A DNA stretch of 64,000 bases. Origin: Thermoplasmatota archaeon (GTDB lineage Archaea > Thermoplasmatota > JAKEGO01). Position numbers and translations under genes: made by a program. A model generated the notes under the pieces. It saw only the letters and a list, made by a program, of their open reading frames with translations, was not told the origin of the DNA and searched no databases. The number at the start of each line of letters is the position of its first letter. The first letter of the stretch is position 1. The stretch is taken from contig JANQNK010000007.1 in NCBI GenBank assembly GCA_028279595.1, positions 25,214 to 89,213 on the forward strand. Reading direction: 5' to 3'. Shown here piece by piece: positions 2,024 through 42,527 of this stretch.

Positions 2024-2141
2024 CATGGGTGAGACGGGTCAATGGTCCCTCAAAGGCATTGGTGATACGCGTTGAGGCACCCGTAGTGACATTGGTGATA
2101 TGCGTCGATGAACTCGCTCCGGCGCTAGTGAGACGCGTTGA
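2024..2141 (+). repeat. Degenerate tandem array, 33-bp period, 19-bp conserved core (consensus CATTGGTGAKACGCGTYGA)
   Basis: Cores start at 2024, 2057, 2090 and 2123, separated by 14-nt variable linkers. Confidence 0.85.
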
Positions 2142-2170
2142 GGCCGGACCGGACCGGCCTCGAGCGCGTC
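2128..2170 (+). repeat. Dispersed hairpin element, copy A
   Basis: gtgagacgcgttga-ggccggaccggaccggcc-tcgagcgcgtc. Confidence 0.8.
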
Positions 2171-2209
2171 TATGAAAGAATTAAGAGGACGAACGGAATA
2201 GCATCCCCC

Positions 2210-2476
2210 ATGAGAGCAATGATCCTCCCCGGAATCGCGGGCATACTCTTGATAGTCGCAATGGCATTGGCCTCCGCCGGTCAGAGGATCGCAGCATTGC
2301 TGGTCCTCGCAGTCTTCTTCTTCTTCATCGTCCTGTCCATGATGGGATTCAGGAACGCTGCAAGACAACTACTCCTCCAGATGGACGCGGAGGACAGGGC
2401 CAGGAAGGCGGCCATGGAAGAAAGGGAACGGAAGAAGGCCGAGGCCCGGAAGCCGAGGAAGAAGGAAGAGGAGTGA
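2210..2476 (+). CDS. Small hypothetical membrane protein (88 aa; two hydrophobic helices plus charged tail)
   Basis: MRAMILPGIAGILLIVAMALA...LLVLAVFFFFIVLSMMGF followed by a K/E/R-rich helix; host-like codon usage; AT-rich TATA-like GAATTAA about 25-30 nt upstream. Confidence 0.75.
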   Translation: MRAMILPGIAGILLIVAMALASAGQRIAALLVLAVFFFFIVLSMMGFRNAARQLLLQMDAEDRARKAAMEERERKKAEARKPRKKEEE

Positions 2477-2491
2477 CCATCCCTTCGGCGA

Positions 2492-2540
2492 CATTGGTGA
2501 GACGCGTCGACCCCCGACCGGATCGGGGTCGAGCGCCGTC
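2492..2540 (+). repeat. Dispersed hairpin element, copy B
   Basis: cattggtgagacgcgtcga-cccccgaccggatcgggg-tcgagcgccgtc. Confidence 0.8.
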
Positions 2541-2573
2541 GCTAACAGTTATTATCCTGTTTTAACAGAGCTT

Positions 2574-3767
2574 CTACTGTTTAGGTTTGAACGCTGACAT
2601 CGAGCGGAGCCGCTCGACCACTTCCTCGATGACCTCGATCGTCCTGTCGATCTCCTCGGGTGTGTTCCGCTCGTCGAAACTGAACCTGATGGAGCCGTGG
2701 GCTTCCTCGTGGGAGCGTCCCATTGCGACGAGGACGTAGTTCGCCTGCAGATTCCAGGAAGCACAGGCGGAACCAGTTGACACTGCGATGTCCTCCATGT
2801 CCAGGTATAGGGTTATGGCTTCACCCTCGATGAAATTGAACGTGATGTTGGCGAGGTCCGGCATCCCGATGGGCCTCTCCACACTGCAGAGCTCCACCGG
2901 TGAGTCGGGCACCTCGACCGGACTGTTCTGGAGCTTGTCCGTGATGTGGTCGAGCCCCGAGATGAGACGCTTCCTCAGGACGTTCGTATGGGACCAGACC
3001 TCGTCCCTCTGACCGACCATGATGCCCACCGCCTCGCCGAAACCCGCTGCCGCCGGGATGTTCTCTGTTCCGCCGCGAGCCCTGTGGTACGAGGTGTCGC
3101 CCATTACATGCGGGGCGATCTTCAAACCGGACGGGAGGATGACCGCACCCGCACCGAGCGGCCCGGATATCTTGTGAGAACTGATCGTCAGCAGGTCGTA
3201 CTCGAGCTTCGACATGTCTATCGGCATCTTCGCGAAGGCGTGGGCGGCGTCGGTGTGCAGGATGGCGTCGGACTTGTCACGTACGACATCCCTGATCGCC
3301 TTCAGCGGCTGGATGGCTCCGACCTCGTGATTGACGGCTTGAACGCTCACAAGTGTCGTGTCCTTCCGGAGAAGTCCAGCAAGATCGTCCATGTCCATGA
3401 CGCCGTTCTTGTCGACCTTGGCGAAGTCGACATCGAATCCTGAAGTGCTCAGGCTCTTGGCCGGAGCGAGGACTGACGGCTGATCGATGGATGATACGAT
3501 GACATGTTTCCCCTTCGGGTTCGCGTGAGAGACGCCGACGATGGCGAGGTTGTTCGCCTCGGTCCCGCCGGACGTGAAGACGACATCGTTGTCGGTGTTG
3601 AGTTCGGAAGTTATCGCATTTCTAGACTCGTCCAGTGCGTCGACAGCGGCCATCGCCTCCTGGTACAGACCGGAGGGTGCGCCCACCTGCGGGATGAGGC
3701 TGCAGGCGCGGTGCGCCGCCTCTGGGAAGATGCGGCGCGAGCGATAGCTGTCAAGGTATATCCTCAT
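2574..3767 (-). CDS. iscS: Cysteine desulfurase (IscS/NifS family, PLP-dependent class V)
   Basis: FTSGGTEANN, HTDAAHA, PLP-lysine motif SSHKISGP and catalytic loop STGSACAS. Confidence 0.9.
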   Translation of the reverse strand: MRIYLDSYRSRRIFPEAAHRACSLIPQVGAPSGLYQEAMAAVDALDESRNAITSELNTDNDVVFTSGGTEANNLAIVGVSHANPKGKHVIVSSIDQPSVLAPAKSLSTSGFDVDFAKVDKNGVMDMDDLAGLLRKDTTLVSVQAVNHEVGAIQPLKAIRDVVRDKSDAILHTDAAHAFAKMPIDMSKLEYDLLTISSHKISGPLGAGAVILPSGLKIAPHVMGDTSYHRARGGTENIPAAAGFGEAVGIMVGQRDEVWSHTNVLRKRLISGLDHITDKLQNSPVEVPDSPVELCSVERPIGMPDLANITFNFIEGEAITLYLDMEDIAVSTGSACASWNLQANYVLVAMGRSHEEAHGSIRFSFDERNTPEEIDRTIEVIEEVVERLRSMSAFKPKQ

Positions 3768-3813
3768 CGTTCCGCAATCGGAAAGGGGGGTTTAAAGTTT
3801 AGGCCTTATGGAG

Positions 3814-6800
3814 TCAGGTCAGATAGGTCCCGCAGTTCGAACAGAACCTCTCGTCCTCATCCAAAGAAGCGTTGCATTCCGGACACTTCCGGTCCACCTC
3901 ATCCTCGGGGATCTCGACAGGAGTCACCAATCCCTTGTAACCCTTCCCACCACGGTCGTAGTAGAGGTCATCGTCCTCCTCTTCCGCGGGTTCCGGCTCA
4001 GGTTCAGGTTCGAACTCAGTTTCGGGTGGCGGTCTGGCAAACTGCTCATGCTCGGGTCTCGGTCGCTCGTAAGGACTTGCAGGGGGAGGACCGGTCGGAC
4101 CTCCTCCGCGCTCGTATCCTCGTGCCTCCCATTCGCCCTCTTTCGGGTCCATCCTCTCCCGAGGCCGGCCGAACTGCTCCCTATCGTAGAAGTGTTCAGC
4201 ATGGTCCCCTCGAGGCGGCCCACCGACAGGCTCGGTGTTCCACTCTACGTCAGCATCCTCGGGCGGGGGTGCATGGCCAGGCAGCCTGTCATGAGGTGAA
4301 CGGCGGTCACGGTACTCCTCCTCGGGAGGCCGTCTCGGATCGGGATCGCCCGGTTTCCAGCCCGGTGGTGGTCGATACATTCTCTCGTCCGGCGGAGGAC
4401 CGCGCATCCGTCCCTCCTGCTCGGCCTTCTTCCTCTCTTCCTCCTCCTTCCGTTTCTTCTTCCGGCTGGAGGCGGCCGCGATCGCGCCGATGACGACGAA
4501 GATGGTGGTCAGGACGAGTCCGAGCATCAGGGGGTTCTGCGGAAGGCCTGTGAAGAACTCGATGATCTGGTCGGCGATCCCCTTCTGCTCCTCTTCATCT
4601 GGATCCTCCTCACCCGGAGGTTCGGCCTCAGCGTCGATCTCGAGCATAGCGGTGAACGCCTCACTGAAATTTCCGTCATCGTCGGTCACGACGAGGGTAA
4701 TGGTATGTGTACCGACACGGATGTCAGATTTGGTGAATGAGGGATTGGGCCCGTCGTAAAGTTCATCTCCGAGGAGGGTCGATGTCCAGAAGTAGTTCTC
4801 GACCATTCCGTCGACATCGGTTGCGGATGCTGTGAAGGTGATCGTCTGCCCGTACACTGCGGGATTCGGATCGAACGTGATACTGTTGATGACCGGAGGA
4901 ATGTTGCCTCCGCTCGGGACGCTCTTGACCTCGAGCTCCTCGGTGACCCACTCGCTCCAGGCTCCGTCATCGTCCTGGCATCGGAAGGAGATGGTGTGGT
5001 TGCCGATGGAGAGGGTATCGGTCATAGTGGTATTATCAAGACCGTCGTAGAACTCCCCATCGACCGAGGAGGACCAGACATATCGTTCAACAGTTCCATT
5101 GTCGGTCCCGTTACCCTCGAAGGTCACGTTGAAGGTCTCGTAGGCCGGGGAAGGTGTGATGGACGTGATGGATGCGACTGGCGGATCGTTGGTATCGTTC
5201 GTCTGATTCGATTCATGGTTAATGGTGATCATAGCGGAGTCAGGTTCGCTCCAGTCCCCGTCGTCGTCCTGAACGGTAAACGATATTTGATGCTCACCGA
5301 CGGAGAATTCTGAGTACTCAGTTCCATTCGATGTACTATTGTAAAACTCTCCATCAAGATCGGAAGTCCAAACGTATCGGACGACCGTACCATCAGCGTC
5401 AGTACCGTTGCCGAGAAAGGTAATGTTCTGGCCGAAGCCACCCGATGACGGGTCGATCATAACAATGATACCGACCGGAAGTTCGTTTGGTGTACGGGAC
5501 CCATTTGGGACCATCAGCGGAAAGTTGTCCTTACTTGCTCCCTCGATCTCATAAGGGGTGTCCCCCACCCCGTCTCCGTCCGTGTCATTCCCTAGATAGT
5601 CGGACCAGTAGTTGCCCTCAAAACCGTCATCCCAATCGTTGTACCTGTGGGCATATGCCTGTGGAGAAATTCCGCTGTCCATGAAAACGTTGTCAACGAC
5701 CACGTTATTAGAACTATAGTACGCGAGACGAAGTGCCTCCTTTCCGTTCCCACAAAAGGTATTATTCTCTATCAGATTGAAACTCCCTGTATTGATTTCC
5801 ATCCCGACAAGATGATTGTCTACGAAAGATGAGTTTAAAATCATACTGTTATCGGCGTCCATGTATACTGCTTCAGAGTACCAGCTATCGTACGAATTCC
5901 TTCGGAAAGTGCATCCATCGATAGTAATGTTCGTAGCATCGTCCGCGTATATGGCATACTCACCATTGTCCCGCATGATACTATCCTGAATATTGATATC
6001 CAAGGAATTGTATAGGTATATCCCGACCCTAGCTTCCGATATTTCACACGAGGCGATCGAAAAATTGTCCGAAAAACCGATCTGGACTGGGAATCCGCCC
6101 GAATTGGAGTTCCAACCGAATGCCGTTATTTCTGTGCAATTCCCGATAAGATAATGTGCATTCGGATCGTCCATCAGAACATTGGCTTCATTTCGATGAT
6201 AGTAGAAGGGATTTCCATTAACAGTAGTATTTCCTATGTTGTGGGTGACCCAATGGTCGATCTCGTCGCCTAGAATACGTATTCCTGCAGAGTCGAATGT
6301 ACAGTCAATGATCGTTTCGTTCAGACTCCTCCAGATCTCTATGCCGTTGTACTCGAAATCACAGTTCTTAACCGTAATTTCATCTTCGGCAAGAGTTATC
6401 GCGGCATTGGAATTTCCTTCAAATGTACAGTCCACAACCTGGCTGGATTGGGTGCTTCCCTGGATTTCAATATCTGTTACAGTGTTATTATAGAATCTAC
6501 ATCCTATGATGCTTGTAGATTCCGCGAGCATGACAAACATGCCCAGCTCCGCGTTGCCATAAATTGCACAGTCCTGGATGATCACACCTGATACATGAGA
6601 AATATCAATGCCGGCAGTAGACTTGGTCTCGTCGCCGCCACCCTTGACCCCTAGGTCACGAATAGATACCCACGCGGATACCTCGATGGTCGTATCAGAA
6701 CCTTGACCATCGATAATCGTATTTGTGGAACCAGACCCATTGATGTATAGAGGTTTCCCAATGTAAACGTTTTCCTCGTACGTCCCTGGCCGAATCTTGA

Positions 6801-6969
6801 TCTCGTCAAAATCAGTGGCATTCGCTATCGCATCCCCAATGGTCGTGTAATCGACTCCACCCCCTCCGTCATCATCCACGATGATCGTTTCCCCGACAAC
6901 TCCGTTAGGTGTGAATATCAAGACCACAGCGACAAGCATCACGACGACGAGGAGCCTCCTGGCAGACAT
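3814..6969 (-). CDS. Membrane-anchored surface protein: NosD/CASH beta-helix, three PKD-like Ig modules, TM helix, Pro/acidic cytoplasmic tail, C-terminal zinc ribbon
   Basis: Signal peptide; parallel beta-helix repeats ending GNYWSDYLGNDTDGDGVGDTPY; repeated YVWxSxxDGEFY modules; TM helix followed by RKKKRK; CPECN...FCSNCG. Confidence 0.85.
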   Translation of the reverse strand: MSARRLLVVVMLVAVVLIFTPNGVVGETIIVDDDGGGGVDYTTIGDAIANATDFDEIKIRPGTYEENVYIGKPLYINGSGSTNTIIDGQGSDTTIEVSAWVSIRDLGVKGGGDETKSTAGIDISHVSGVIIQDCAIYGNAELGMFVMLAESTSIIGCRFYNNTVTDIEIQGSTQSSQVVDCTFEGNSNAAITLAEDEITVKNCDFEYNGIEIWRSLNETIIDCTFDSAGIRILGDEIDHWVTHNIGNTTVNGNPFYYHRNEANVLMDDPNAHYLIGNCTEITAFGWNSNSGGFPVQIGFSDNFSIASCEISEARVGIYLYNSLDINIQDSIMRDNGEYAIYADDATNITIDGCTFRRNSYDSWYSEAVYMDADNSMILNSSFVDNHLVGMEINTGSFNLIENNTFCGNGKEALRLAYYSSNNVVVDNVFMDSGISPQAYAHRYNDWDDGFEGNYWSDYLGNDTDGDGVGDTPYEIEGASKDNFPLMVPNGSRTPNELPVGIIVMIDPSSGGFGQNITFLGNGTDADGTVVRYVWTSDLDGEFYNSTSNGTEYSEFSVGEHQISFTVQDDDGDWSEPDSAMITINHESNQTNDTNDPPVASITSITPSPAYETFNVTFEGNGTDNGTVERYVWSSSVDGEFYDGLDNTTMTDTLSIGNHTISFRCQDDDGAWSEWVTEELEVKSVPSGGNIPPVINSITFDPNPAVYGQTITFTASATDVDGMVENYFWTSTLLGDELYDGPNPSFTKSDIRVGTHTITLVVTDDDGNFSEAFTAMLEIDAEAEPPGEEDPDEEEQKGIADQIIEFFTGLPQNPLMLGLVLTTIFVVIGAIAAASSRKKKRKEEEERKKAEQEGRMRGPPPDERMYRPPPGWKPGDPDPRRPPEEEYRDRRSPHDRLPGHAPPPEDADVEWNTEPVGGPPRGDHAEHFYDREQFGRPRERMDPKEGEWEARGYERGGGPTGPPPASPYERPRPEHEQFARPPPETEFEPEPEPEPAEEEDDDLYYDRGGKGYKGLVTPVEIPEDEVDRKCPECNASLDEDERFCSNCGTYLT

Positions 6970-7014
6970 GATTATCCCACCGGCCAATCGCACTCTGGAT
7001 AGTTAACGATTTCG

Positions 7015-10000
7015 TCAGCCTAGATACGTACCGCACTCCTCGCAGAACCGGGCTCCCTCCTCGATGGGGTTATTGCACTCTGGGCATGGGAAGGTGTCGA
7101 TGACCTGCATCTCGTCGTCCTTGGGTTCCTCGACAACAGGTCCGGATGAGTACTCGTATTCCGATGATTCCGGTTCATCGTAATCCGTTTCAGATGGGGC
7201 GTAGGGTTGATCGTAGTCACCCGGTCTCTCAGGTTCTTCATCTAAAGGTTCGTCCATCGAAGGGATCACCTGGTATCCCATCGGTTCCTGAGGTGGTATC
7301 CGGTCCCGTACTCCATGCTGAGGTATTTTCCTCTCGACAGATGTTGAAGTGGATCCGTCCTTTCCTCTCGGGCTGCTCGAAGCTCCCTTTTTCCGATCTA
7401 TCAGTACCAAGATCAGGATGACCACGATGATCATCGATATCAAAAGGAGTAAAAATGGATTCCCGAGTAGGCCTTTGTCTGACGCACTATCATCCCCATC
7501 AGGTTCGGTTCCAGGATCAGCCTGGACGGTGAAGGTGGTAGATCCAATGTTGTTATCCTCATTCGACTCGTTGACCTTCCCTGCTGGGTCGATCATTGCA
7601 TCAATGTTGTAGTGACCGTGGTCCAAGTTCAATTCGAACGTCACAGTGATTGCGTCTAGAAGCATTATCGTAACTGATTTATTTGCGATCTCATCGCCAT
7701 CTTCAAATGACAACGATACTGAAATATCATTTAAGGTGAGAGTGCCAGAATTCCAAATAGTCACATTGATGAGGACAACATCTCCCTCCATCGGTGTGAT
7801 AGGGTATACGGTAATATCGTCATTGGTAATGATCAGATCGGGTAGATAGGGTTCTACGACTTGGACTGAAATGGATGCATTGTTGTTCAACAACAGGGTC
7901 TCGTTGAATTCCCCATCAGGATTGACACGGATGTTCACATCGAAGAGCCCGGATTCGGACGGTGTCCAGTTGAATTGGACCACCGAGTAGCTCTTGTTGG
8001 TGACCGTGACCTCGGTCGAATCGACATGATTGCCGCTCAACCAGAATTCTACGGTTGCATTCTCGGCGTCCTCGATGCCATTGTTCGAAACGATAACATT
8101 TATCTCAGTATATTCACCGACCTCGGGCATTGCCGGATTAAGAGCGATGGTTGACTCGCTAATGGAGAGCTCGACATCGGAGAGTTCCCATGCAAGGACA
8201 CTGAAAGTAATATTATTGTTCGATGTATTGAGCTCAGGTTCATAGTAAATAATCTGAACAGAGACTTGAATCGTTCCAGATTCAAGAGGTGTCCATTGAA
8301 TATCGATCAGGGATTCTGAAAGGGCGTTTACATCTACTGTCTCATCATGTGTATGATTTCCAATTGCGATCGCAACTGATACATTAGACGCATTCCCTTG
8401 TCCTTCATTATGGATAGAGAAATTAATATTGTAAACAGAATCGATGTAGACAATGTGAGGAATATCAACATCTCCCCGTTCTATGGATAAGTCGGGAAGG
8501 TATGGAAGAATTGTTAAAGTGATAGAATACGGGATGCCCCATTCAGTCCCATTATCCATTACCCTGAAACGGATTGTATGATTTCCAACGGAGAGTTTAG
8601 AATAATTGATCGAAGCTTCTGACCCGTTGTAGAACTCACCATCGATAGATGATGTCCAGGAATATTGAACGATAGTTCCATCGGTATCATTTCCGTGACC
8701 AATGAAGGTAATAATTTCCCCATTGAATTCGGAATTGCGCAAGATATTATCAATTTCCGCCACTGGTTTCTGGTTAACGTAAGGTGCTTTGACGATAACA
8801 GAAAGATTCGAAATCGCGTTATCGCTCCAGAGACTTCCATTGTCCATAACTCTGAAGATGATCGTATGATTCCCCAGTGACAGGCCATCAGTGAAGGTTG
8901 TGTTGGAACTCCCGTTGTAGAATTCCCCGTCGATCGAAGAAGACCATACATACCTCGAGATATTCCCATCCACATCGACTCCCAATCCTCGGAAGTAAAT
9001 GGTACTACCATTGGACGCAGGATTTGGAGAAATGTCAACAATTGATGCCGTTGGATATTCGTTCCCATTCGGTAATGAGCCATTCCATGGATTCATCAAT
9101 GGATAACGATCCTCGTTCCCGCTGCTACCATCAATCTGATAAGGGGTATCTCCGATGCCATCTACGTTCTCGTCAGAACCGTTGTAATCGGACCAATGGT
9201 TTCCTATGGATCCGTTATCCCAATAATTAGAAGGTTCTTGGTCGGCTACTTGTATGCCGCCCAGGTTGTTGAAAATAAAATTGTTGAGGAAAAATCGGTT
9301 CCCATCACACCCAGCTTCGATTTGGATTCCGATCAATTGATTTCTTACGATTGCGTTATTCATGAACCTGTTATCGTCACTATTGACCTCGAAGGTAACA
9401 CCGTAGGAATTATTGTGAATGGAGTTGTTGGTGAATTCACAACTGCTTTGATACCCAAATGGACTATACATGTTCCTATCCAAATGGATTCCATTGAGGC
9501 ACCCTGAGATAGTATTGTTATCAATGATCGAGTCTGATGTCCCTTGGAGTTCCATACCTGAGAGGTTGCTCGAGGTGATAATATTTCCAAATATCAATGC
9601 ATCTTTCGATCCATGGTCCTCGATACCGTAATCATTCTCTACCAAGGTATTATTGAGAATTTGCGAATGTTCAGTGGAAGCAAGATAGATCCCACTCCTG
9701 TCGTTCGAACATACATTCGATATGACACGGTTCCAATCTGAGTGGGATACAGTAATGGTGTTCTTGCAGTTGTTGTCGGTGATCAAGTTATGATGCGATT
9801 GTTGTGTGATCTGGATGCCAGAGTCGTAATTCCGATCACATGTGTTGTTCCTCACCGTACAATTAGAAGTGAAATAGAGATCGATCCCCGAGCTCATTGA
9901 ATCACAGACATAGTTGTTCTCTATCAATGAATTGTTTGATTTGTATAGATGGATTGCCTCGAATGAGCTCGAATTAACGATATTGCCAGAGATCGTTAAT

Positions 10001-15018: not shown

Positions 15019-15069
15019 GACCGATACCCCTCTATCTGGCCAATGCAACGACATTAGATAAGAATTACG

Positions 15070-16360: not shown

Positions 16361-16454
16361 GCTGCCGCATACACTCTAACAATTAATAACTGTTATCATG
16401 GACGGTGTACTCGATGATCGGGTTCGTGGTCAATTTCCTTATATGCACTTGTTC

Positions 16455-16496
16455 GAGGCGCGTTGATGACAGCGAAGCGGAGTCATCGAGCGCCTC
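16455..16496 (+). repeat. Dispersed hairpin element, copy C
   Basis: gaggcgcgttga-tgacagcgaagcggagtca-tcgagcgcctc. Confidence 0.8.
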
Positions 16497-16543
16497 TCTT
16501 TGAATTGAGAAAGTGGGATACGATAACTACGGACCGGGCGTCA

Positions 16544-17978: not shown

Positions 17979-17986
17979 AACCCAAA

Positions 17987-24808: not shown

Positions 24809-24821
24809 TGCGGGTGGCTCA

Positions 24822-29231: not shown

Positions 29232-29282
29232 AGGCAGTTACAAGGGGTACAGATAGCTTGTTATCTTCCAGCCGGAGCCAGG

Positions 29283-29930: not shown

Positions 29931-30020
29931 GCCGTAGGCAACATACAGGTCCATTATGAACCTGTCGCCTTTCAACACGTACGAACAACTGTTAAAATAG
30001 TAGAGTTCGATTTGGGAAAC

Positions 30021-32135: not shown

Positions 32136-32159
32136 GCTTGATCTCTGAATGAAGGACCC

Positions 32160-32618: not shown

Positions 32619-35600
32619 CCCCCCAGCAGGGTCAGGAGCAGGGTCGATACCGGGTCAGGCATCACGGTGTGCTCCCTTCCGCCCTCGAGCTCGATCTCGT
32701 TCACACCCGCAGTCGGCGCTCCCGCCGGCAGGAACCCGTTCGTCGAGAAGTCGACGAGGACCACGTTCCCCTTCCTCTTCCCCAGGATGTCGATCTCGTG
32801 GTCGAGGGTGATCCTGATGTCCCCGCAATCGGTCGCGTCGACGCTCACTATCGGGAGGGTTCCGAAGGTCATCCTTATGCTGACCTCGAGCTTCTCGATG
32901 TCCTTCGCCCGGACCTCGAGGGATCTCAGCTCGTACTGCTCCATCAGTGGCATGTTGGAGTAGCGCATCATCAGATACTCGATGTCCCCGGAGGCATGGA
33001 GAGTGTCGCCGGACATCCACAGCTTTGTCCTCCTGCCAATGTTCCTTGCATAGATCTCGAGGTCACCGGCCTGGCCCAGACCCCTGCCGTCGAATGATAT
33101 CAGGGCCGAGGTCCCGCCTGAGCTGGCTGTGATCTCGACGGTCGGGAGGCCCTGGAGAGGGTTGGGATCGTCCATGTCGTACTCGGGGTTCGCCCAGGTG
33201 TCGATGGACAGGACGCTCGGTACGTCTGTGGCGACGACGTGGGTGTGCCACCACCTGTCGTCAAGGTACTTCCCGACGTCCAGCATGAGCTTCTCGACTC
33301 CGCCCGCACCGTTGAACTCAAGGTGCGTCTCGTGATCCACATCGAAGGTGATGTTTCCCGTGCGGGGGGGGGAGTCAGCGTACAGCGTGAAGGAGGTCTG
33401 TGGCGATTTGCTGTCGGTGGTCGTGAGGTAGATCGCGTCGATGTCCTTGTTGGTGGTGAAGTCGACGTAGCCGTTCAACATCGGGATGCCGTTCGGGGTC
33501 TCGTCCACGGTGATGTTCATGTCCAGGTCGACGTCCGTGTCCTCCTGCAGCCCCTTCATGTAGACGAAGAGGTCCCTGCCCTTGAGGCCCTCGACGTCGA
33601 GGAGTATCCAGTTGTACTTCGACGAGAAGTCCTGGACATGGAACTCGAAGTCCATCGTCCTCCCTTCCGTGTATGTCAGGAGGTCCAGGGTCTGGGGCAT
33701 TCCGTTGATGTAGATGAGCGCGTGCATGACGGTATCGCCATCGATCTCGGCCTGCCTGGCCGACACGCCGTGGGTCCATTCCACCGGCCCGAGCTGCGAG
33801 ATGTCTCCCACCTGGATCTCGGCCACGATATTGAGGTTGTACGTTGACGCGTAGTCGAACTTGTCGTTCGATCCGAGGTCCTTGAGGATGTCCAGGCCGC
33901 CCTGGGTGACGTTGCTGAGCATGTTGGTGACCGAATCGCCCATCTCGGCCACTCCCACGAGGACGTTGCTCAGGTCGAAGACGGACGATATGTTCCCGAC
34001 GCTCGGCACGGAGATCGACTCTCCGCTGAGCTCGACGTTGAGCTTGAGGTCTATGGACTGCGGGATAGGGTTGACAGCGGCCTTGATGTAGGTCTCCCTT
34101 ATCGTATCGTTGACACCGACGTAGAGAGGATAGGAGTTGGACAGCTCGTAAGCGAACCTGGTCCCGTTCCTGGTGTTGTACGTGAACCTCTCGACGGACT
34201 CGATCCTAGCCGATATCATCGTCGTGGTATCGTTGCGTTTCATCAGGATATACGATCCCGGCAGCCGGAACAGCCCGTTGTCGGATATCACAAGCTCCAG
34301 AGCCCCCAGCGTGCCAGTGAAGTTCAGGTCCATCAGGCCCTCGTGGTTGTAGAGCTCGAGCCTGTTCGGGAAGTCGTCCATCTCGAGGAGCATGTAGGTC
34401 CCGTTGATGGTTCCGGAGAAGGCGATGTCCCCGAGGGTGCTGTCGAAGCAATCGATGAGGAGTGTCCTGTCGGTGACGTTGATGAAGAGGTTGCTGGGAA
34501 GGGAATCGATCTTCAGTGTGGCGTCCTCGCTGTGGAAGCCTGGGACGCCCTCCCAAACCGCCTCCTGGTCGACGTATATGAAGTAGAACGCCCGGGTCTT
34601 CTCGAGCTGAGGGTCGAAGTGGAGGTCGATGGACGTGAAGTCCGAGAAGTAGATGTTCATGTCACCTATCCCCTCGACACGGCCCGATATGGGGGTCTCG
34701 ATGAGCTCGCCCTCGGCCCTGTAGAAGGCCACGAAGTTGCGTTTCTCGCCGTCCTTCTCCGGCGATAGGTAGACGTAGCTGTCGGAGGTGTACCAGAACT
34801 CGACGCCGCCGAGGTAGGAACCCATCATGTTGAGCTCGAACCAGCCCGAATCGGCGGGCATGTTGAACATCCTGTCAGACATCGATCTGAGGGTCTCGCC
34901 AACGCCCCAGAATCCCTTGTAGAAGTACGATATCACCGCATTGAAAAGGTACGTAAGGAGGTTCCCTCCTCCGATGACGGGGTCCGGTCCCGAACCGGAA
35001 TCGAAGGTTCCCTTCAGAACCAACCGTCTCGGGATGTCCCACATGTCTATGTGCATGATACGGTACTCATTGCCCGGCCTCGGATCCCGGGGATAGTCCC
35101 AGGGATCGGTGTGATAGAGATGCTCGGTGTAGTTGAACCGCTTCACAACGGACGAGCCGTCCAGGGACAGTCTGCTGGTGAGGACCTCGCTGTCGTTCTG
35201 GGTGGTGTTCCTCAGGTGTAGGGATATCCTGAAGGGCATCTCCTCGATGTCGAGGTTCACCCAGAGGCTCTCGTTGTACCTGGCATCCCTGTATATCACC
35301 GTCACGTTCGAAGGCCTGCCTACGTCGGTCTCGTCGTTGTCCGGATAGTACCATCTGATCTCGTCGAAGGCGGCGTTCTCGGAACGGGTGTCCAGCGTGA
35401 GGTTGCCAAGACCTGGCAGCAGGTCGTCGTCGGGACCGTTCCCGTTGACGTCGACGGGATCGCAGTCGGCCTTTATCCACGAGATCTCCCGCCAGACGGG
35501 ATCGCCCACCTCGTTCTCAGTGACGTTGCCGATGCCTGCCATCATGTTGAGGTTCGGCAGGTCCTCGACGGGATATCTACCACCCTCCGGGGTCGGTATG

Positions 35601-36610
35601 CCCAGTGCTCCGAGGATAAGGGTCATGAAAGGTTCCAGAGCATTATCGTAAAGGAAGGATGCATAGACGGTCGAGGGGCCCCACTCGATCACGTAGGGAC
35701 CGTCCACGGCTTCCAGCAGGGTGTCGTCCAGATCGGTTATATCGCCGTTCAGGAAGTTGCCGATCACCTCGAGGGTAGCGCCGGATATGAAGAAGTTCAT
35801 GAGCAGTGAAAGGGAATAGTGCTCGGGTATCTTCTCCTCGAACCTGTACTGGAGCAGGACGAGGTAGTTCTTGCCGTCGAAGCTCACGGACTTGGCGACG
35901 CCGATGTCCAGGGGAACAGCGTCATTCACACCCGGTGTGGGGTTCAGGTTCTCCACCTGAAGGCCGAGACCGCCGTACATGCTCAGATTGACAAGAGCAT
36001 CGAGGTTCGGCGGTATCGTTATCTGACCAGGGAGGAGTTCGATGTTCACCTGACGAGCCTCGAACTTGAATCTTACCTGGATGTCGTTGCCGCCCTCGCC
36101 CGTTGCAGGGTCGTTGTCGACGTCCAGTTCCGTCCAGTCGAGCTCGGTCGGCTCGAAGATGTTAGCGTTGATGGCCGATCCCTCGACCCACTCGTGCGGG
36201 TCGTCGTCGTATTTGTAATAGATGTAGTATTCGAGCGGGTTCTCGAGGAGGAAGTCCCAGATCGATGAGTAGCCGGCAAGGGGTTGAGTAAGTACAGTGT
36301 CGACCATGTTGTCCGATGGCGGCTGAATGAACTCGGTCTCGGTGATGTCGCCGCTGCCTTCGGTGCTGTTGACGAGATATCTCCTGTCGTACTCCGTCTC
36401 GTACACCTGGGCGAGGACGCCCTCGGTCTCCTGGACTATCTGCACGGAGGTTCGACGGTCCTCTATCTCGGCAAGTATGTCGGCGACGTCGGCGTGTACC
36501 CCGAAATCGGATTCGTTGGGGAAGAACATGCTCTGGCCGACGGCCGGAGGGAGGACCACAGCCATTATCATGATGGCAACGGCGTAGTAAGAGAAGCGTC
36601 GCTGATTCAC
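32615..36610 (-). CDS. Large secreted beta-rich hypothetical protein (~1330 aa)
   Basis: GTG start at 36610 about 25 nt after TTATAAA; signal peptide; host codon bias; recurring hxhxxhPxxhxh motif. Confidence 0.8.
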   Translation of the reverse strand: MNQRRFSYYAVAIMIMAVVLPPAVGQSMFFPNESDFGVHADVADILAEIEDRRTSVQIVQETEGVLAQVYETEYDRRYLVNSTEGSGDITETEFIQPPSDNMVDTVLTQPLAGYSSIWDFLLENPLEYYIYYKYDDDPHEWVEGSAINANIFEPTELDWTELDVDNDPATGEGGNDIQVRFKFEARQVNIELLPGQITIPPNLDALVNLSMYGGLGLQVENLNPTPGVNDAVPLDIGVAKSVSFDGKNYLVLLQYRFEEKIPEHYSLSLLMNFFISGATLEVIGNFLNGDITDLDDTLLEAVDGPYVIEWGPSTVYASFLYDNALEPFMTLILGALGIPTPEGGRYPVEDLPNLNMMAGIGNVTENEVGDPVWREISWIKADCDPVDVNGNGPDDDLLPGLGNLTLDTRSENAAFDEIRWYYPDNDETDVGRPSNVTVIYRDARYNESLWVNLDIEEMPFRISLHLRNTTQNDSEVLTSRLSLDGSSVVKRFNYTEHLYHTDPWDYPRDPRPGNEYRIMHIDMWDIPRRLVLKGTFDSGSGPDPVIGGGNLLTYLFNAVISYFYKGFWGVGETLRSMSDRMFNMPADSGWFELNMMGSYLGGVEFWYTSDSYVYLSPEKDGEKRNFVAFYRAEGELIETPISGRVEGIGDMNIYFSDFTSIDLHFDPQLEKTRAFYFIYVDQEAVWEGVPGFHSEDATLKIDSLPSNLFINVTDRTLLIDCFDSTLGDIAFSGTINGTYMLLEMDDFPNRLELYNHEGLMDLNFTGTLGALELVISDNGLFRLPGSYILMKRNDTTTMISARIESVERFTYNTRNGTRFAYELSNSYPLYVGVNDTIRETYIKAAVNPIPQSIDLKLNVELSGESISVPSVGNISSVFDLSNVLVGVAEMGDSVTNMLSNVTQGGLDILKDLGSNDKFDYASTYNLNIVAEIQVGDISQLGPVEWTHGVSARQAEIDGDTVMHALIYINGMPQTLDLLTYTEGRTMDFEFHVQDFSSKYNWILLDVEGLKGRDLFVYMKGLQEDTDVDLDMNITVDETPNGIPMLNGYVDFTTNKDIDAIYLTTTDSKSPQTSFTLYADSPPRTGNITFDVDHETHLEFNGAGGVEKLMLDVGKYLDDRWWHTHVVATDVPSVLSIDTWANPEYDMDDPNPLQGLPTVEITASSGGTSALISFDGRGLGQAGDLEIYARNIGRRTKLWMSGDTLHASGDIEYLMMRYSNMPLMEQYELRSLEVRAKDIEKLEVSIRMTFGTLPIVSVDATDCGDIRITLDHEIDILGKRKGNVVLVDFSTNGFLPAGAPTAGVNEIELEGGREHTVMPDPVSTLLLTLLGG

Positions 36611-36762
36611 GGCTTTATGAACGTATAATCGTTTATAACGATTGTTGTAAGCCCTTGCCTGATTCGACGCATGACGACGGGGTACTGGCCATTGCACCCG
36701 GAGCCCTTAACACCATGCGAACAGGAAAGATAAAATGGGTCTCGGACATACACTAACCGAGC

Positions 36763-37704
36763 ATGGGATCGCTGATCACTACCAGGGGACTCACGAAGAG
36801 GTACGGACAGGTACTGGCCCTTTCAGGTGTAGACCTGAAGGTACCGAAGGGCGCGACAGGTCTTCTAGGACCGAACGGGGCTGGAAAAAGCACACTCATA
36901 CGTTCATTGATAGGCCTGGTCACCCCGGATTCCGGGAGAGGTAGGATCTTCGGCAAGGACATATCGTCGATGGGTCTGGACATACGAAGGAGGATCGGCT
37001 ACATGCCCGAGCACGACTGCCTTGTCCAGGACATGTCGGCCGTCGAGATGGTAGCCTACGCAGGACTCCTCTCCGGGATGTCCCGCGGAGCTGCCGTCCA
37101 GAGGGCGCACGAGGTGCTCCACTTCGTCGGTATGGACGACGAGAGGTACAGGGACATAGAGACCTACTCGAGCGGGATGCGCCAGAAGGTCAATCTCGCC
37201 CAGGCGCTGGTCCACGATCCCGAACTTCTCTTCCTCGACGAGCCCACCAGCGGACTGGACCCGAAGGGCCGGGTCGAGATGCTCGAACTCTTCAGGTTCC
37301 TTTCCCACGAACAGGGGAAGAGCCTTCTCCTCAGCACCCACATCCTGCCGGACGTCGAGTACGTCTGCGACAACCTCATCGTGCTCGCAGACGGCAAGGT
37401 CCTCCTCCAGGGGGACATCGAGGAGCAGCTCAGGGGTGAGACGGGCGTCGTCAACGTCAGGATCGAGGGCGACCGGGACGCTTTCAGAAGGGCCCTTGAC
37501 GGACGGGGTTACACGGTCGAGGACGATGGCTACATCATAAGGGTGGTCAGGATGGGAGGGGAGACGGACCCGGAGGACATCTTCTCCGATGTGGTGCGCT
37601 CGGCCTCCGACACGGGCGTCCAGGTCAGATATGCGAGCAGGACGGCGAGGAACCTCGAGGACCTCTTCATGGAGCTGGTGGAGGAGAGGGGTGAGGTCGG
37701 ATGA
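36763..37704 (+). CDS. ABC transporter ATP-binding protein (ABC-2/CcmA-like)
   Basis: GPNGAGKS, YSSGMRQ, LFLDEPT and H-loop STH. Confidence 0.95.
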   Translation: MGSLITTRGLTKRYGQVLALSGVDLKVPKGATGLLGPNGAGKSTLIRSLIGLVTPDSGRGRIFGKDISSMGLDIRRRIGYMPEHDCLVQDMSAVEMVAYAGLLSGMSRGAAVQRAHEVLHFVGMDDERYRDIETYSSGMRQKVNLAQALVHDPELLFLDEPTSGLDPKGRVEMLELFRFLSHEQGKSLLLSTHILPDVEYVCDNLIVLADGKVLLQGDIEEQLRGETGVVNVRIEGDRDAFRRALDGRGYTVEDDGYIIRVVRMGGETDPEDIFSDVVRSASDTGVQVRYASRTARNLEDLFMELVEERGEVG

Positions 37705-39383
37705 CCCGGGCCCTGGATCCGCGAGGTGGGAAGGAATCGAGGATATACACCGACCGCTACACCCCGTGGAAGGGGGAGCTCGGAGAGAGACACTGGATAG
37801 TCCTTAGGGCCATCAATGACGGTTTCAGACACAATCTCAGGAACAAGTGGGTAAAAGCGATAATCGCCCTGGCATGGGTTTTCACGGTGGTCTTTCCGCT
37901 CCTCACGGCCTCCTTCGGGATGAACCAGCTGATCCAGGACGCCGACAGCGCGGCGAGGTACGAGAACTACGAGGAGTACCTGTCGGAGCTCGACGAATAC
38001 GGGATCGGTTACAGGATGGTCAAGAACATAGAACCGGACTCGATGGCGACCTTCGATGTCTGGGTCTCCAATACCGGTGAGAGGCCGGATATCATCCACG
38101 TCTACATCGCGGACATCAGGGCGGACCAGCCAGGTTGGGGGGTATGGCTCAACCTACCCGGGAGCATGAACGCAACCGGGGAGCTCAACTTCAGCCTTCC
38201 CGCTGGCGAGATGGCGAACTTCAACCTCTCGGTCGCCGCACCGCCCGGGCTCATCACCGGGTACGCTGACGTCATCATCGGAGCCGAGTCGGAGGGGGCT
38301 TCGAGCCTCGTTTCCCTGTTCGGTGGGGAGACCGGGGTGTCGAAGGGACTCGCCACGAGGACGATCGTAGGCCAGACCGAGGCGTCACCCTACCATTTCA
38401 CGATCACAGCGCTGCAGCCGGTCGGTTCGGTCAGGGCCGGCGACTCCATTACCATAGACCATGTCATCGAGAACACGGGTACCGAGGCGGATATATACAA
38501 TGTCTTCACCACCGGTCTGCCCGACGGATGGAGGTCATCGGTCGACGGAACGGGAGACGGGGCGATCGATCTCGAGCCGGGGGAATCGTTGAACTTCTCG
38601 GTGACCTTCAGGGTGCCGGACGACTCGATCTCCACCAACTACGTCTCGGTCCTCGGGTTGTCTACCATGGACCCCTCGCTCACGAGCGGTTCGGTGATGA
38701 TCATCAAGGTAACGGATATCCCGGACGTTGACCTGACCGCAGAGATCATAGCGGGCCCGAACACAGGCCTTGCGTCCAGCCTGTTCATGCTCTTCACCCT
38801 CTTCCTGGCGGCGATAGCGGGATCGAAGGCCATCGCCATGGACCTGGCACAACGTTCATACACCGTTTACTTCGCAAGGCCGATAGGGAAGATGGATTAC
38901 GTGGCGATCAAGTACGGAACGGTCGGCGCCACACTCTCAATGGTCACGATACTCCCACTGCTATGCGCATACCTCGGCCTCATATTGCTGTCGAGCGTCG
39001 GTGGCCAGTACCTTATGGACCACGCCTGGGTCTGGGGGGCCATAGTCCTTCACGGACTCCTCATAATCATCGTTCTGACCTCATTGTCACTGGCCTTCTC
39101 GTCGCTGACAACAAGGAGGTTCACGGCTGCGTTCGGCCTCGTGGTGGCGTACTTCATGACCTTCGTCATGGCGAGCATCATCGTGAACGTCTTCGGCGAG
39201 GCTGGCGGGACCGCCGTGTCGATATACGATTCGGTCCAGCTGGCCGGAGCCGGGATCTTCGGGGTCGAAGGGGTCGACTTCGATTACAGCTGGGGGTACA
39301 ACGTGCTTACCCTGCTTTCGATCTCGGCCATATCCACCCTGGCTGTGCTATGGAAGGTCAGTAGGACGGAGTTGAGCGAATGA
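37701..39383 (+). CDS. ABC-2-type permease with inserted extracellular Ig/NEW3-like domains
   Basis: TM1, then two NTG...D.(Y/I) Ig-like repeats, then five TM helices with a YFARP motif; ATGA coupling. Confidence 0.85.
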   Translation: MTRALDPRGGKESRIYTDRYTPWKGELGERHWIVLRAINDGFRHNLRNKWVKAIIALAWVFTVVFPLLTASFGMNQLIQDADSAARYENYEEYLSELDEYGIGYRMVKNIEPDSMATFDVWVSNTGERPDIIHVYIADIRADQPGWGVWLNLPGSMNATGELNFSLPAGEMANFNLSVAAPPGLITGYADVIIGAESEGASSLVSLFGGETGVSKGLATRTIVGQTEASPYHFTITALQPVGSVRAGDSITIDHVIENTGTEADIYNVFTTGLPDGWRSSVDGTGDGAIDLEPGESLNFSVTFRVPDDSISTNYVSVLGLSTMDPSLTSGSVMIIKVTDIPDVDLTAEIIAGPNTGLASSLFMLFTLFLAAIAGSKAIAMDLAQRSYTVYFARPIGKMDYVAIKYGTVGATLSMVTILPLLCAYLGLILLSSVGGQYLMDHAWVWGAIVLHGLLIIIVLTSLSLAFSSLTTRRFTAAFGLVVAYFMTFVMASIIVNVFGEAGGTAVSIYDSVQLAGAGIFGVEGVDFDYSWGYNVLTLLSISAISTLAVLWKVSRTELSE

Positions 39384-40342
39384 CCGGGAATGGACGTGCC
39401 GGCGATCTCAGGGGCGGGCGACCCCCCAAACCGGTGGTGACGGCCACAGGCCTCACGAAATGGTACGGCCTTGTCCTGGGCATAAGCGACATCAATCTGG
39501 GCATCGCGGAGGGGACGACGGGGCTCCTGGGCCCCAACGGGGCCGGCAAGAGCACCTTCCTCAAGCTCATGACCGGTCAGATACGGGCGAGCCGCGGTGA
39601 GGTCCGCCTCCTCGGCCAGCCGGTCTGGAACAACCCACAGGTGATGGCCAGGATCGGATACTGCCCCGAACAGGACGCATTCTACGGGTGGATGACCGGG
39701 CTCGAGTTCGTCACGACGCTGCTCAGGATAGGAGGATACGCCAAGACGGACGCTGAGGACCTCGCGGAGTCCGCCATGCGATTGCTCGACATGGGCGACG
39801 CCATGGACAGGAGGATATCCGGCTACAGCAAGGGGATGAGACAGAGGACCAAGATCGCCCAGGCCATTGCACACGACCCGGACCTCCTGATCCTCGACGA
39901 GCCGCTCTCCGGCACGGACCCGGTGGGGAGGGTGAGGATCCTCGAGGTCATCCGGCGTTACGAGAAGGAGGGAAAGAACGTCATCCTCAGCAGTCACGTC
40001 CTACATGATGTGGAGAGGACCACACGTGACATTGTACTGATAAACAAGGGGAAGGTGATCGCGGAGGGCGACGTCCATGCCATCCGCGGGCTCATCGACC
40101 AGTATCCCCATATGGTGAGGGTGAGGACGGAGGAATCGCGGAGGCTGGCCGGTCTGCTGGCAGGCAACGACGGGGTCGTCTCGCTGGAGTTCGAACCCGG
40201 CGTTCTGGTGATCAAGACCTCCGCACCAGACACGTTCTACGGGGAACTTCCGCGGATACTGTCCGAGAGCAATGTCAGGTTCACGGAGATATCGAGCCCC
40301 GACGACAACCTGGACGCGGTGTTCAGGTACCTGGTGGAATGA
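39380..40342 (+). CDS. ABC transporter ATP-binding protein
   Basis: GPNGAGKS, YSKGMRQ, LILDEP and SSH. Confidence 0.95.
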   Translation: MTGNGRAGDLRGGRPPKPVVTATGLTKWYGLVLGISDINLGIAEGTTGLLGPNGAGKSTFLKLMTGQIRASRGEVRLLGQPVWNNPQVMARIGYCPEQDAFYGWMTGLEFVTTLLRIGGYAKTDAEDLAESAMRLLDMGDAMDRRISGYSKGMRQRTKIAQAIAHDPDLLILDEPLSGTDPVGRVRILEVIRRYEKEGKNVILSSHVLHDVERTTRDIVLINKGKVIAEGDVHAIRGLIDQYPHMVRVRTEESRRLAGLLAGNDGVVSLEFEPGVLVIKTSAPDTFYGELPRILSESNVRFTEISSPDDNLDAVFRYLVE

Positions 40343-41193
40343 TGGCAACGAAGAGGACGAGCAAGGGCGCGAAGCGGCGCGGCAGACGCATACCACCCCC
40401 CACGGGCAGCCAGGCCTCCTACAACAGGGGGTATGCCCTGACCATGATGACCATCAGGTCGATCCTGCTAGACAGGAAGACCTGGGTGCTCATAGCCCTT
40501 CTGCTCCTCCTGCTGGGTATCCCGATGCGCTGGCTGATGGACGCACCCAGCGACAAGGATGCCGAGATGGAGGTCTTCATGACCATCATGATCATCGTCT
40601 ACCTCCAGTTCATCGTCCTGTACACATGTCTACTGTATGCATCATCCCTGGTCAGCGCGGAGACCGAGGAAAGGACGATGACCTATCTCATCTCGAGGCC
40701 GATAGCCCGTTCCGAGATACTGATCTACAAGTACATCGGATACGTCGTCTCGGTCTTCTCGATCTTCGCACTCACGACGATACTGAACTACATCGTCCTC
40801 GCTCCGCATGGGGGAAGCGCTGCATTCACGAGGAACCTGGACCTGCTCGGCTACACGCTGGGCGGGATCCTGATAGCGGTGATAGGATGGGGAGCGCTCT
40901 TCATCCTGATGGCCTCGGTCTTCAAGAACCCCCTGATGCCGGGTTTCCTGTACAGCCTGTTCTGGGAGTCCCTCCTGGCGAACATGGGCGGGAACATCTC
41001 GAGGGCGACGATCACGTACCAGATAAGAACGTTCATATTCAACGGGCCATCTCGGCTCGAGGACATGGCACAGGGAGACCTCCCCGTTCACGGCGGCCAT
41101 ACTCCGGCCATGGCGTTCCTAGTCACGCTCATCGCAGCTGCAGCGTTCCTGATCATGTCGTGGTTGTTCGTCAGAAAACGAGACTTCAATTGA
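40339..41193 (+). CDS. ABC-2-type permease
   Basis: Six TM helices; E-x-E-E-R-T-M-T-Y-L-I-S-R-P coupling helix; C-terminal RKRDF. Confidence 0.9.
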   Translation: MMATKRTSKGAKRRGRRIPPPTGSQASYNRGYALTMMTIRSILLDRKTWVLIALLLLLLGIPMRWLMDAPSDKDAEMEVFMTIMIIVYLQFIVLYTCLLYASSLVSAETEERTMTYLISRPIARSEILIYKYIGYVVSVFSIFALTTILNYIVLAPHGGSAAFTRNLDLLGYTLGGILIAVIGWGALFILMASVFKNPLMPGFLYSLFWESLLANMGGNISRATITYQIRTFIFNGPSRLEDMAQGDLPVHGGHTPAMAFLVTLIAAAAFLIMSWLFVRKRDFN

Positions 41194-41214
41194 ACACGAT
41201 CGCGAGGACCAGTC

Positions 41215-42423
41215 TTATTCCTTGCAGTCCGCCAGCGGGTCGCATGCAATATCGAGCACGTCCAGTTCCCGTACAGTGACGTCGGTCCCCAGAAGCGAGG
41301 CGAGGCTCGGGTCTGTACGTCCAGAATCGCCATGGAGCAGCTCCTTGATGTAGGTGCCCGCCTCGGCCACGACATTGATGCGTGCCTGGCCATCGCCTGC
41401 GGAGACCAGCGAGATATCGCGAACGGTCCTCTTCCGCACGAGATCGGCCCTTCTGCGATTGACGCGCTCGGGGGTCCGCTGATGGATCGTGGTTCCCCTG
41501 AGGTCGGCGAGAGCGGTAGAGATCGAGCCTTCGTCGGCTGCCGTCTCGATCAGGGACTCGTATTCCTTGTCGCACCGCATCGCCTTGATGGACTTGACCA
41601 TACGTCTGTCGGAGAAGGACAGGTCGCGGACCTGGACGAGGTCCGAGGAATTGATCTCCGAAAGGGCTGAATCGAGGTCCAGCGACCTTCGTTTCGGTCC
41701 ATGGACCTCGGCGACGAACGGCCGGCCCGTGCCGAGCATCCTGACGTCGACGTCCTCCCTGCCCAGGCCGTGGAAGCTGTGCTCTCGCCCGTCTGCCATT
41801 GTCATTAGCGGGCCGCAGACGACCTCTTCGACACTCGTCTGATACATCTTCCCCGTGCCGTCGCAGCGATCGCAGCCGGTCCCTCGGCACTTCCTGCACG
41901 GCCACCTCGTCTGGGGTATGCCCCTCTGGAGCTTGTTGTAGCGGCCGTAGACGAAGAGCGACCTGACGTCGAGCTCCACAGTGTCGTACCTCACGTCCAT
42001 GATCGCCGTTATGTCGGGTCTGGACATGTCGGCCTCGGCGCCGGTCAGCGCCTCGACGCGCTTCCCCACCTCGCGATTGAGCTCGCTCTTCGCCTCCTCG
42101 CCGCAATCGATGTCCAGTTCCTCGCGGCAGGAGGATTCCGAGCCGACCAGCTCGTCGTCCACCCGGCAGCCGATCATGAATGTCGAGAACTCGTATTCCC
42201 CCAGGGACTGGACGACCAGTTCCGCAAGGTCGTCCAGCTCGCCGAACAGACCTTCGCACATGGAGCAGGAGTCTGGGTCCGTCGTTCCGTCCACTTCGAA
42301 GTATGAACGCAGCGCGCGGCCGCGTTCATCGTTCGTCATGCCATGGCCCTTCTTCCCGAACAGCCGGCCCAGACAGTGGTCGCACAGCCCGAGCTCGAGA
42401 GCCTTTCTGGCGGCCTCCTCCAT
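41215..42423 (-). CDS. pus10: tRNA pseudouridine(54/55) synthase Pus10
   Basis: N-terminal CDHCLGR zinc motif, GRYNK, IPQTRW, catalytic GREDVDVRMLG, QRTPERV and GTYIKEL. Confidence 0.95.
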   Translation of the reverse strand: MEEAARKALELGLCDHCLGRLFGKKGHGMTNDERGRALRSYFEVDGTTDPDSCSMCEGLFGELDDLAELVVQSLGEYEFSTFMIGCRVDDELVGSESSCREELDIDCGEEAKSELNREVGKRVEALTGAEADMSRPDITAIMDVRYDTVELDVRSLFVYGRYNKLQRGIPQTRWPCRKCRGTGCDRCDGTGKMYQTSVEEVVCGPLMTMADGREHSFHGLGREDVDVRMLGTGRPFVAEVHGPKRRSLDLDSALSEINSSDLVQVRDLSFSDRRMVKSIKAMRCDKEYESLIETAADEGSISTALADLRGTTIHQRTPERVNRRRADLVRKRTVRDISLVSAGDGQARINVVAEAGTYIKELLHGDSGRTDPSLASLLGTDVTVRELDVLDIACDPLADCKE

Positions 42424-42486
42424 GGCATGGAAGCCGGCATACCGTAGAAAAGGGTTTTGAGAGACCGGCATCCCATCGAAGATCAA

Positions 42487-42527
42487 GGTGAGGCGCGTTG
42501 ATCGCCGAATGAGGCGTGATCGAGCGC
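42487..42527 (+). repeat. Dispersed hairpin element, copy D
   Basis: ggtgaggcgcgttga-tcgccgaatgaggcgtga-tcgagcgc. Confidence 0.78.

Follow-up and report, generated by a model that had tools for sequence, protein, structure and literature searches.

REP-type hairpins and the Y1-HUH proteins that partner them are regarded as bacterial. Y1 transposases act on the lagging-strand template and use as substrates a hairpin together with its flanking bases, and a survey of HUH enzymes lists only IS200-type Y1 proteins for Archaea, with no RAYT classes reported there (PMC6006769). Site-specific enzymes for single-stranded DNA are rare and make useful tools, an example being SsnA of the Ssn system, a GIY-YIG single-strand nuclease that cuts NTS and Ssn-related motifs in Neisseria and others; the paper that describes it contains no archaeal case, and a term search of its main text finds neither leading-strand nor replication-linked polarity (PMC11893778). 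We found no description in the literature of a replication-polar hairpin repeat in Archaea. Here we analyze such a repeat in a 64,000-nucleotide stretch of DNA (the window) from a Thermoplasmatota archaeon (assembly GCA_028279595.1, contig JANQNK010000007.1). The window corresponds to G000:C21:25214-89213, where G000 is the metagenome-assembled genome (MAG) under study (2.29 Mb, 21 contigs, 86% complete), which is archaeal by its Orc1/Cdc6 genes and archaeal ribosomal proteins. The family shares the general build of the bacterial REP hairpins and differs from them in three respects, namely an absolute lock to replication, the absence of inverted pairs and the lack of a recognizable partner gene. 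We favor, with a probability of about 0.5, the reading that the element is a small non-coding, REP-like or IS200-like hairpin unit of single-stranded DNA that spreads or acts at the replication fork.

An initial annotation of the window, made from its letters alone, had proposed four intergenic copies of a hairpin in fixed orientation. All four lie where it had placed them: the exact arm pattern matches the window at 2134-2167, 2503-2536, 16459-16493 and 42494-42527, always on the + strand, with no match expected by chance (100 shuffles), and a covariance model (R1), built from a gap-free alignment of 43 equal-length copies (A1), finds the same four sites and no others. With their model scores and predicted folding energies, the copies are as follows.

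2118..2174, + strand: copy A, a full element with 5′ handle, bulged hairpin and 3′ CGT tail (64.3 bits; DNA fold -19 kcal/mol, z -6.3)
2487..2543, + strand: copy B, a full element (60.4 bits; fold -15.2 kcal/mol)
16443..16500, + strand: copy C, of the subtype that bulges the G on the 5′ strand; its handle is GAGG and CCTC closes its outer stem (33.6 bits; fold -14.3 kcal/mol)
42478..42534, + strand: copy D, a full element whose inner stem is imperfect, located in a divergent spacer (44.5 bits; fold -9 kcal/mol)

Across G000 the model gives 84 hits, a mean density of ~1 copy per 27 kb, and the same-orientation excess of pattern matches puts the family at ~90–105 when decayed copies are included. 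The arms themselves recur as 31 exact and ~60 loose matches. The genome-wide count, which had been suggested as a check, is far above controls. Each element is ~57 nt long, more than the hairpin first delimited, and begins with a handle that is conserved at the 5′ end and runs approximately as CCAG, then seven free bases, then YGAKA; its G and A at -4/-3 are invariant across the 43 aligned copies. The stem that follows has an invariant core, CGCGTYG on the left and CGAGCG on the right, the latter usually followed by CGT. The initial annotation had also included in the conserved arms the A of TYGA and the T of TCGA, which stand beside this core, but these are a covarying pair (AT in 20 copies of A1, CG in 13, TA in 7 and TG in 3). 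An extrahelical G is likewise present, but it can sit on either strand, which divides the copies into two subtypes: those of the form GAGA...CGCGTCTC carry the bulged G on the 3′ strand, and those of the form GAGG...GCGCCTC, such as copy C, carry it on the 5′ strand. Above the core the stem continues for exactly five covarying pairs in which the sequence is free; it is topped by an apical region of ~10 nt, and at position 6 of that region 33 of 38 copies have a G. In the window, the arm spacing of 18, 18, 19 and 18 nt and the inward extension of the stems are as originally described. A plain helix with one bulge accounts for the covariation, and we rejected K-turn, C/D-box and bulge-helix-bulge readings of the arms, whose registers do not fit. 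We also rejected restriction-site avoidance, as MluI-, HhaI- and TaqI-like words of the kind found in the arms occur at observed/expected ratios of 0.85–1.2.

Because the copies in A1 had been picked for pairing, we repeated the covariation test on matches picked by their arms alone. At least four contiguous inner pairs were present in 56 of these 65 matches, compared with 2.2% when the inner sequence was shuffled. The five stem positions were paired in 97–100% of the arms-only set, with three to five pair types at each. As a control, sliding the 3′ partner by 1–3 columns reduced pairing from 90% to 29–43%. The proposal of a structured, length-constrained family is supported, and the covariation holds up when tested without bias. 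In 33 of the 43 aligned copies the Y position forms a T-G wobble, which makes the top strand the better folder, as had been argued for the window. Of the two strands, the top one indeed gives the better fold in all four window copies and, family-wide, in 64 of 83 copies when folded as RNA (mean -21.6 kcal/mol) and in 63 of 83 when folded as DNA.

The elements are locked to the direction of replication, not to that of transcription. On each of 16 contigs, which reach 406 kb and carry up to 15 copies, all covariance-model hits are co-oriented, and no contig of G000 has a switch of orientation with copies on both sides. When contig orientation was taken from these hits, pattern matches split 56:0 between same and opposite orientation for exact arms with the stem, and 88:7 when one mismatch per arm was allowed; the fixed orientation claimed for the four window copies is thus supported, contig by contig. 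Raw GC skew agrees in sign with the element orientation on all 14 contigs first tested; once the skew at 4-fold degenerate sites is corrected for transcription, the agreement extends to every contig, including C10 and the copy-bearing part of C11. In a regression the coefficient for element polarity was +0.046 ± 0.004, independent of gene strand, and the skew of pooled intergenic DNA had the same sign (+0.010). Genes show no polarity bias (710 same, 758 opposite), nor do tRNAs (23:19). It is this combination, agreement with the skew and unbiased genes and tRNAs, that ties the elements to replication, and their orientation is usable as a replication-direction marker for ordering contigs of the lineage.

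Neighboring genes have no comparable influence on how the elements are oriented. The enrichment between genes that had been proposed as a check is strong: 64 of the 84 copies are fully intergenic in a genome with 13.5% non-coding DNA, and the apparent exceptions lie at the 5′ edges of over-long open reading frames (ORFs), the genes having been taken from a crude codon-usage call that over-extends those edges. The flanking genes are divergent at 26 copies, both antisense at 25, both sense at 19 and convergent at 12, counts that match the proportions of these classes among background spacers (231, 299, 286 and 139). The varied flanks noted for the window are likewise as described: copy A lies in a divergent spacer beside the start of a ribosomal-protein operon, copy B between the convergent genes for an 88-aa membrane protein and an aminotransferase, copy C between genes that are both on the opposite strand, and copy D in a divergent spacer. 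An information profile revealed no conserved A+T-rich or promoter-like block upstream of the copies, and Rfam gave no match at the gathering threshold in the 64-kb window. From the flank statistics, the missing promoter-like block and the missing Rfam match we conclude that the element is neither a self-transcribed RNA gene nor a terminator or untranslated-region (UTR) element. None of the four flank configurations departs from its background frequency, and the claim that these are not simple terminators stands, as orientation ignores the direction of the flanking genes. As a separate observation, the 88-aa gene that separates copies A and B (window 2210-2476) has a second gene call, on an independent Logan contig (SRR20820740) whose aminotransferase is identical to that of the window.

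From one related species to the next, copies have appeared, disappeared and decayed. Eight close pairs are arranged head-to-tail, 64–85 nt apart; their apical stems are similar in some, which suggests local duplication, and unrelated in others. Two unlinked copies, C5:38214 and C18:254534, share an identical apical part within unrelated flanks, which suggests that the copied unit can be the bare hairpin. We found no target-site duplications, the longest direct repeat across the flanks averaging 4.90 nt against 4.86 nt in a mismatched-pair control. Partial copies form an array in the window.

2024..2125, + strand: three 5′-half units (handle and left arm, without the right arm) with a 33-nt period, from a repeat-family search; nhmmer places solo left halves at C21:27269 and C21:27302

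This array, a local partial duplication, immediately precedes copy A in the spacer where the large ribosomal-protein operon begins; elsewhere in G000, solo left halves occur at one site only, C18:71807.

Beyond G000, a 1.6-kb metagenome contig (L168) matches C4:62319-63900 at 81% identity and shares its two-element spacer; in one of the two elements of L168, the apical part is wholly unlike that of its counterpart and the arms have a paired deletion. A genome of a sister genus (G001, 73% complete) has only five copies, in two arrays of three and two, both with the polarity expected from synteny, and the site of the three-copy array is an empty 83-nt spacer in G000. A further genome of the same order (G002) has no copies, and forty relatives gave chance matches only. 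Sequence from this genus or from close relatives is present in the samples SRR20820740 and JGI 3300033154, 3300041082 and Ga0255054. Pattern scans of the GTDB species set and JGI metagenomes returned chance matches in GC-rich bacteria, with L168 as the only real member. We rejected a viral or plasmid origin: among the 80 IMG/VR loci listed there is no genuine member, all pattern matches being due to chance. Even within G000 the distribution is patchy, with no copy in the last 155 kb of C11 and none on C12. The family is a lineage-specific expansion with slow birth, death and decay and with visible constraint on its intact copies.

With its handle, bulged hairpin, fixed-length stem, strand-specific folding and polarity, head-to-tail clusters and lack of target-site duplications, the family appears to work like the substrates of enzymes that act on single-stranded DNA; those we compared are the REP and IS200/IS605 ends of Y1-HUH proteins and the NTS of SsnA (PMC6006769, PMC11893778). 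On our preferred reading, the element would consist of a single-stranded 5′ handle, a sequence-specific hairpin base with an extrahelical G, five free pairs and an apical region of ~10 nt. A sequence- and structure-specific protein would recognize it when one DNA strand becomes single-stranded at the fork, and the element would be copied or inserted there, always in one orientation, in the manner of IS200/IS605 elements and probably of REPs. Such a scheme presupposes folding in single-stranded DNA and a dedicated enzyme, which would not be a recognizable Y1-HUH, TnpB or GIY-YIG protein in this MAG. The initial annotation had proposed substrates for a protein acting on hairpins of single-stranded DNA or RNA. 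Of these, RNA is disfavored because orientation follows replication skew and not transcription, and the protein is one that we, too, can only infer.

Several findings weigh against a mobile or fork-acting unit of this kind. The first concern is the missing enzyme. PF01797, the Y1-HUH profile, has no match in G000 or G001 and one match in G002, which is free of the element; TnpB is absent from G000, where PF07282 gives only a sub-threshold hit inside a 738-aa ORF; and GIY-YIG (PF01541) has no match in G000, whereas 13 of 14 control genomes matched. Control genomes were positive for all three profiles. Nor does any gene family recur beside copies in G000, and the genes between close pairs are housekeeping genes (for ribosomal proteins, eIF2-alpha, Memo and ligases). 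A second concern is divergence: the copies have strongly diverged and include one identical pair only, unlike recently active REPINs or miniature inverted-repeat transposable elements (MITEs). Moreover, the other element on L168 is 52/57 identical to its ortholog in a surrounding spacer that cannot be aligned, and this better conservation of orthologous copies than of their spacer looks like selection on the element itself.

The third concern is the template strand. By the usual rule, the G-rich strand has the leading-strand sequence and hence is the lagging-strand template, and the folding (top) strand of the elements is the G-rich strand. Placement of the folding strand on the lagging-strand template by this rule would fit the strand rule of IS200/IS605 (PMC6006769). 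However, all three ribosomal-protein operons that we identified run opposite to the top strand, on the strand that is C-rich at 4-fold sites.

C21:12576-27255, opposite to the elements: ribosomal-protein operon L2-S19-L22...L32e-L18-L15
C4:26031-27037, opposite to the elements: ribosomal-protein operon S12-S7
C2:21655-22896, opposite to the elements: ribosomal-protein operon L44e-eIF2alpha

Either these operons run head-on to replication or the lineage has a C-rich leading strand; the G-rich rule and the orientation of the operons disagree on which template strand the folding strand belongs to.

The search for a partner included other enzyme classes. The best match in G000 to the integron integrase profile TIGR02249 scores 90 bits against a cut-off of 265 and is a XerA-like gene; searches with Y2 and viral Rep profiles gave no matches in G000 and likewise none in the control genomes, which makes them uninformative. 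No multi-copy large repeat or insertion sequence (IS) in G000 carries the hairpin, a negative to be read with the tendency of MAG assemblies to lose IS copies. With neither target-site duplications nor a large repeat family that bears the hairpin, we rejected the idea that the elements are ends of an IS or MITE. The statement that the window encodes no cognate enzyme was borne out for the families searched, the window's other genes not having been annotated: Y1-HUH, TnpB, GIY-YIG and integron integrase are absent, and the window's contig has no tyrosine recombinase. The suggestion that an HUH or RAYT gene might sit amid clustered copies found no support, given the empty PF01797 search of G000. 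One candidate partner gene lies outside the window, ~22 kb upstream of it.

G000:C21:2766-3533, - strand: P0001, an orphan ORF of 255 aa

Elements flank P0001 tightly on both sides in G000 and in four related metagenome contigs (L344-L347), and its homolog in G002 has no flanking hairpins. In the related contigs the upstream variant element is kept, with the innermost conserved G-C pair replaced by T-A on both sides, and in one of the four it is duplicated. The downstream spacers of the relatives hold one, two or ~4 copies together with decayed relics, in constant orientation, and neighboring copies at this locus have unrelated apical stems. Pfam and PDB gave no hit for P0001, only 3–4 homologs exist in a set of 1.8 billion representatives, and its AlphaFold2 model (pLDDT 48) was too poor for a fold search. 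An Atlas assignment (0.85) gives a weak lead, that P0001 might be an AHJR/Hjc-like PD-(D/E)XK nuclease.

The main rival to our preferred reading is a polar chromosome signal kept by the host, such as an archaeal counterpart of KOPS or Chi or a single-strand initiation signal, for which a replication, repair or segregation factor would read one template strand and spread would be secondary or finished. We regard this as unlikely, although it accounts well for several features: polarity and replication skew agree completely (100%), the sequence of the hairpin base is conserved, and the geometry of five variable pairs and a ~10-nt apex with G at position 6 is fixed. The T-G wobble and the bulged G are retained, not 'corrected', orthologous copies remain conserved beside unalignable spacer, and we found no transposase in G000. 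An essential signal should, however, be shared, yet the sister genus has its five copies confined to two arrays and G002 has none. The empty stretches on C11 and C12, the eight tandem pairs and the shifts in array copy number between close relatives, with their decayed relics, also speak against a signal of this kind. The two readings are compatible, and not mutually exclusive.

Two further explanations are each highly improbable. In the first, a tyrosine recombinase would use the element as a recombination site folded from a single strand, like attC or the folded attP of the CTX phage, and the genes between direct copies would be cassettes. The conserved base, extrahelical base and variable center loosely follow the attC layout, the 88-aa gene sits between copies A and B, and G000 encodes seven ordinary tyrosine recombinases, one of which (C14:112430-112960) lies 270 nt from an element. 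Against these points, no integrase of the integron type reached its cut-off, the arms as read from the alignment lack RYYYAAC / GTTRRRY boxes, the enclosed genes are the housekeeping genes named above rather than cassettes, and the copies are dispersed through the genome instead of being arrayed beside an integrase. The second is that the element acts as RNA, be it a small RNA, a site for an RNA-binding protein, an mRNA stabilizer or a terminator. Covariation with G-U-type wobbles would suit RNA equally well, as would the stable mean fold of the top strand; but orientation is independent of both neighbors, with the 25 doubly antisense copies as a case in point, no promoter-like block or Rfam match accompanies the elements, and, with tRNAs and genes both unbiased, co-oriented expression cannot produce a polarity of 100%. 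A duplex binding site (an operator or nucleoid-protein site) that is palindromic by chance is the least probable of all: the element is a quasi-palindrome in intergenic DNA and the 33-nt phased left-half array adjoins a promoter region, but five stem positions vary and yet stay complementary, which argues for selection on intrastrand pairing and not on duplex sequence, the polarity tracks replication and not a regulated gene, and the left-half array is nearly unique in the genome.

Some loci associated with the elements or with replication deserve mention in their own right. At each of two loci (G000:C14:112107-112960 and G000:C19:78561-78754) a tRNA-Arg gene is preceded, at 39–63 nt, by an element in the same orientation; beyond the tRNA-Arg gene on C14 come a tyrosine integrase and ~4.6 kb whose codon usage is atypical, a region that is probably an integrated element. 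The low-GC contig C5 (72.7 kb, 51% GC), which carries hairpin elements, has its own Orc1/Cdc6 gene and an integrase and shares segments of 1.8–4.2 kb at 81–87% identity with the start of C1 (G000:C1:4002-11761); C5 and the start of C1 look like two related integrated or extrachromosomal elements. On C11, a candidate replication origin is the 316-nt spacer (C11:163572-163887; 41% GC) that separates the main orc1/cdc6 gene from a gene divergent to it. At the settings used it showed no clear ORB-type repeats; the skew around it is noisy, and no elements lie to its right.

What the family would mean depends on how it is maintained. If the element is mobile, it implies an as yet undescribed enzyme that acts on single-stranded DNA at the archaeal fork; if it is kept by the host, archaeal chromosomes would have in it their first polar structural signal. 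It is conceivable, if doubtful, that an undescribed protein family, whether a new single-strand transposase or nuclease or a host replication or repair factor, reads the hairpins at the archaeal fork on one of the template strands. Were this true, the hairpins would be the first DNA signal known in Archaea that is both structured and replication-polar.

The statement of the initial annotation that no archaeal family of this kind has been described agrees with the lack of an Rfam match and with our literature search. Its analogies with REP/RAYT, IS200/IS605 and attC do not extend to membership: Y1-HUH, TnpB and IntI, inverted pairs and the R-box consensus are all missing. We likewise do not count the element among the REP, IS200/IS605 or Ssn families because the defining genes and arrangements that we tested for were not found. 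The resemblance to REP, BIME and REPIN elements with their RAYTs is nevertheless considerable: these, too, are short, imperfect, intergenic, non-coding palindromes in tens to hundreds of copies, with a conserved short single-stranded motif 5′ of the hairpin, arrays and lineage-specific abundance. That motif is GTAG in REPs, in contrast to the invariant GA of the YGAKA handle; the archaeal copies come with no detected RAYT or other Y1 gene, occur head-to-tail only and never as inverted pairs (84 copies), hold a replication-locked orientation, and have diverged instead of clustering around a master sequence.

IS200/IS605 ends share with the element an irregular hairpin with flanking guide or target bases, the absence of target-site duplication and, by way of single-stranded DNA, a coupling of orientation to the replication fork (PMC6006769). 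The archaeal unit differs in that it has one hairpin only and no separate left and right ends that enclose a cargo, in an assembly with no TnpA or TnpB and no larger repeat that ends in the hairpin. Haloarchaeal PATEs, which are miniature IS200/IS605 derivatives, are comparable in the same way. In the NTS/Ssn system, as here, hairpin repeats are made directional by a conserved non-palindromic sequence upstream and are rare inside genes, and there one strand only is recognized, as single-stranded DNA; the consensus sequences are unrelated, and we detected no GIY-YIG domain here. With attC sites the element shares structure kept over sequence, an extrahelical base, a variable center and strand-specific function, whereas the R-box consensus, an IntI gene and cassette arrays were not found and housekeeping genes lie between copies. 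Finally, KOPS and Chi, known as 'architecture imparting sequences', show the same near-absolute strand bias along the direction of replication. They are 8-nt duplex words, dense and conserved across related genera, whereas the archaeal element folds as a unit of 57 nt, is sparse and patchy, and hardly occurs outside one genus.

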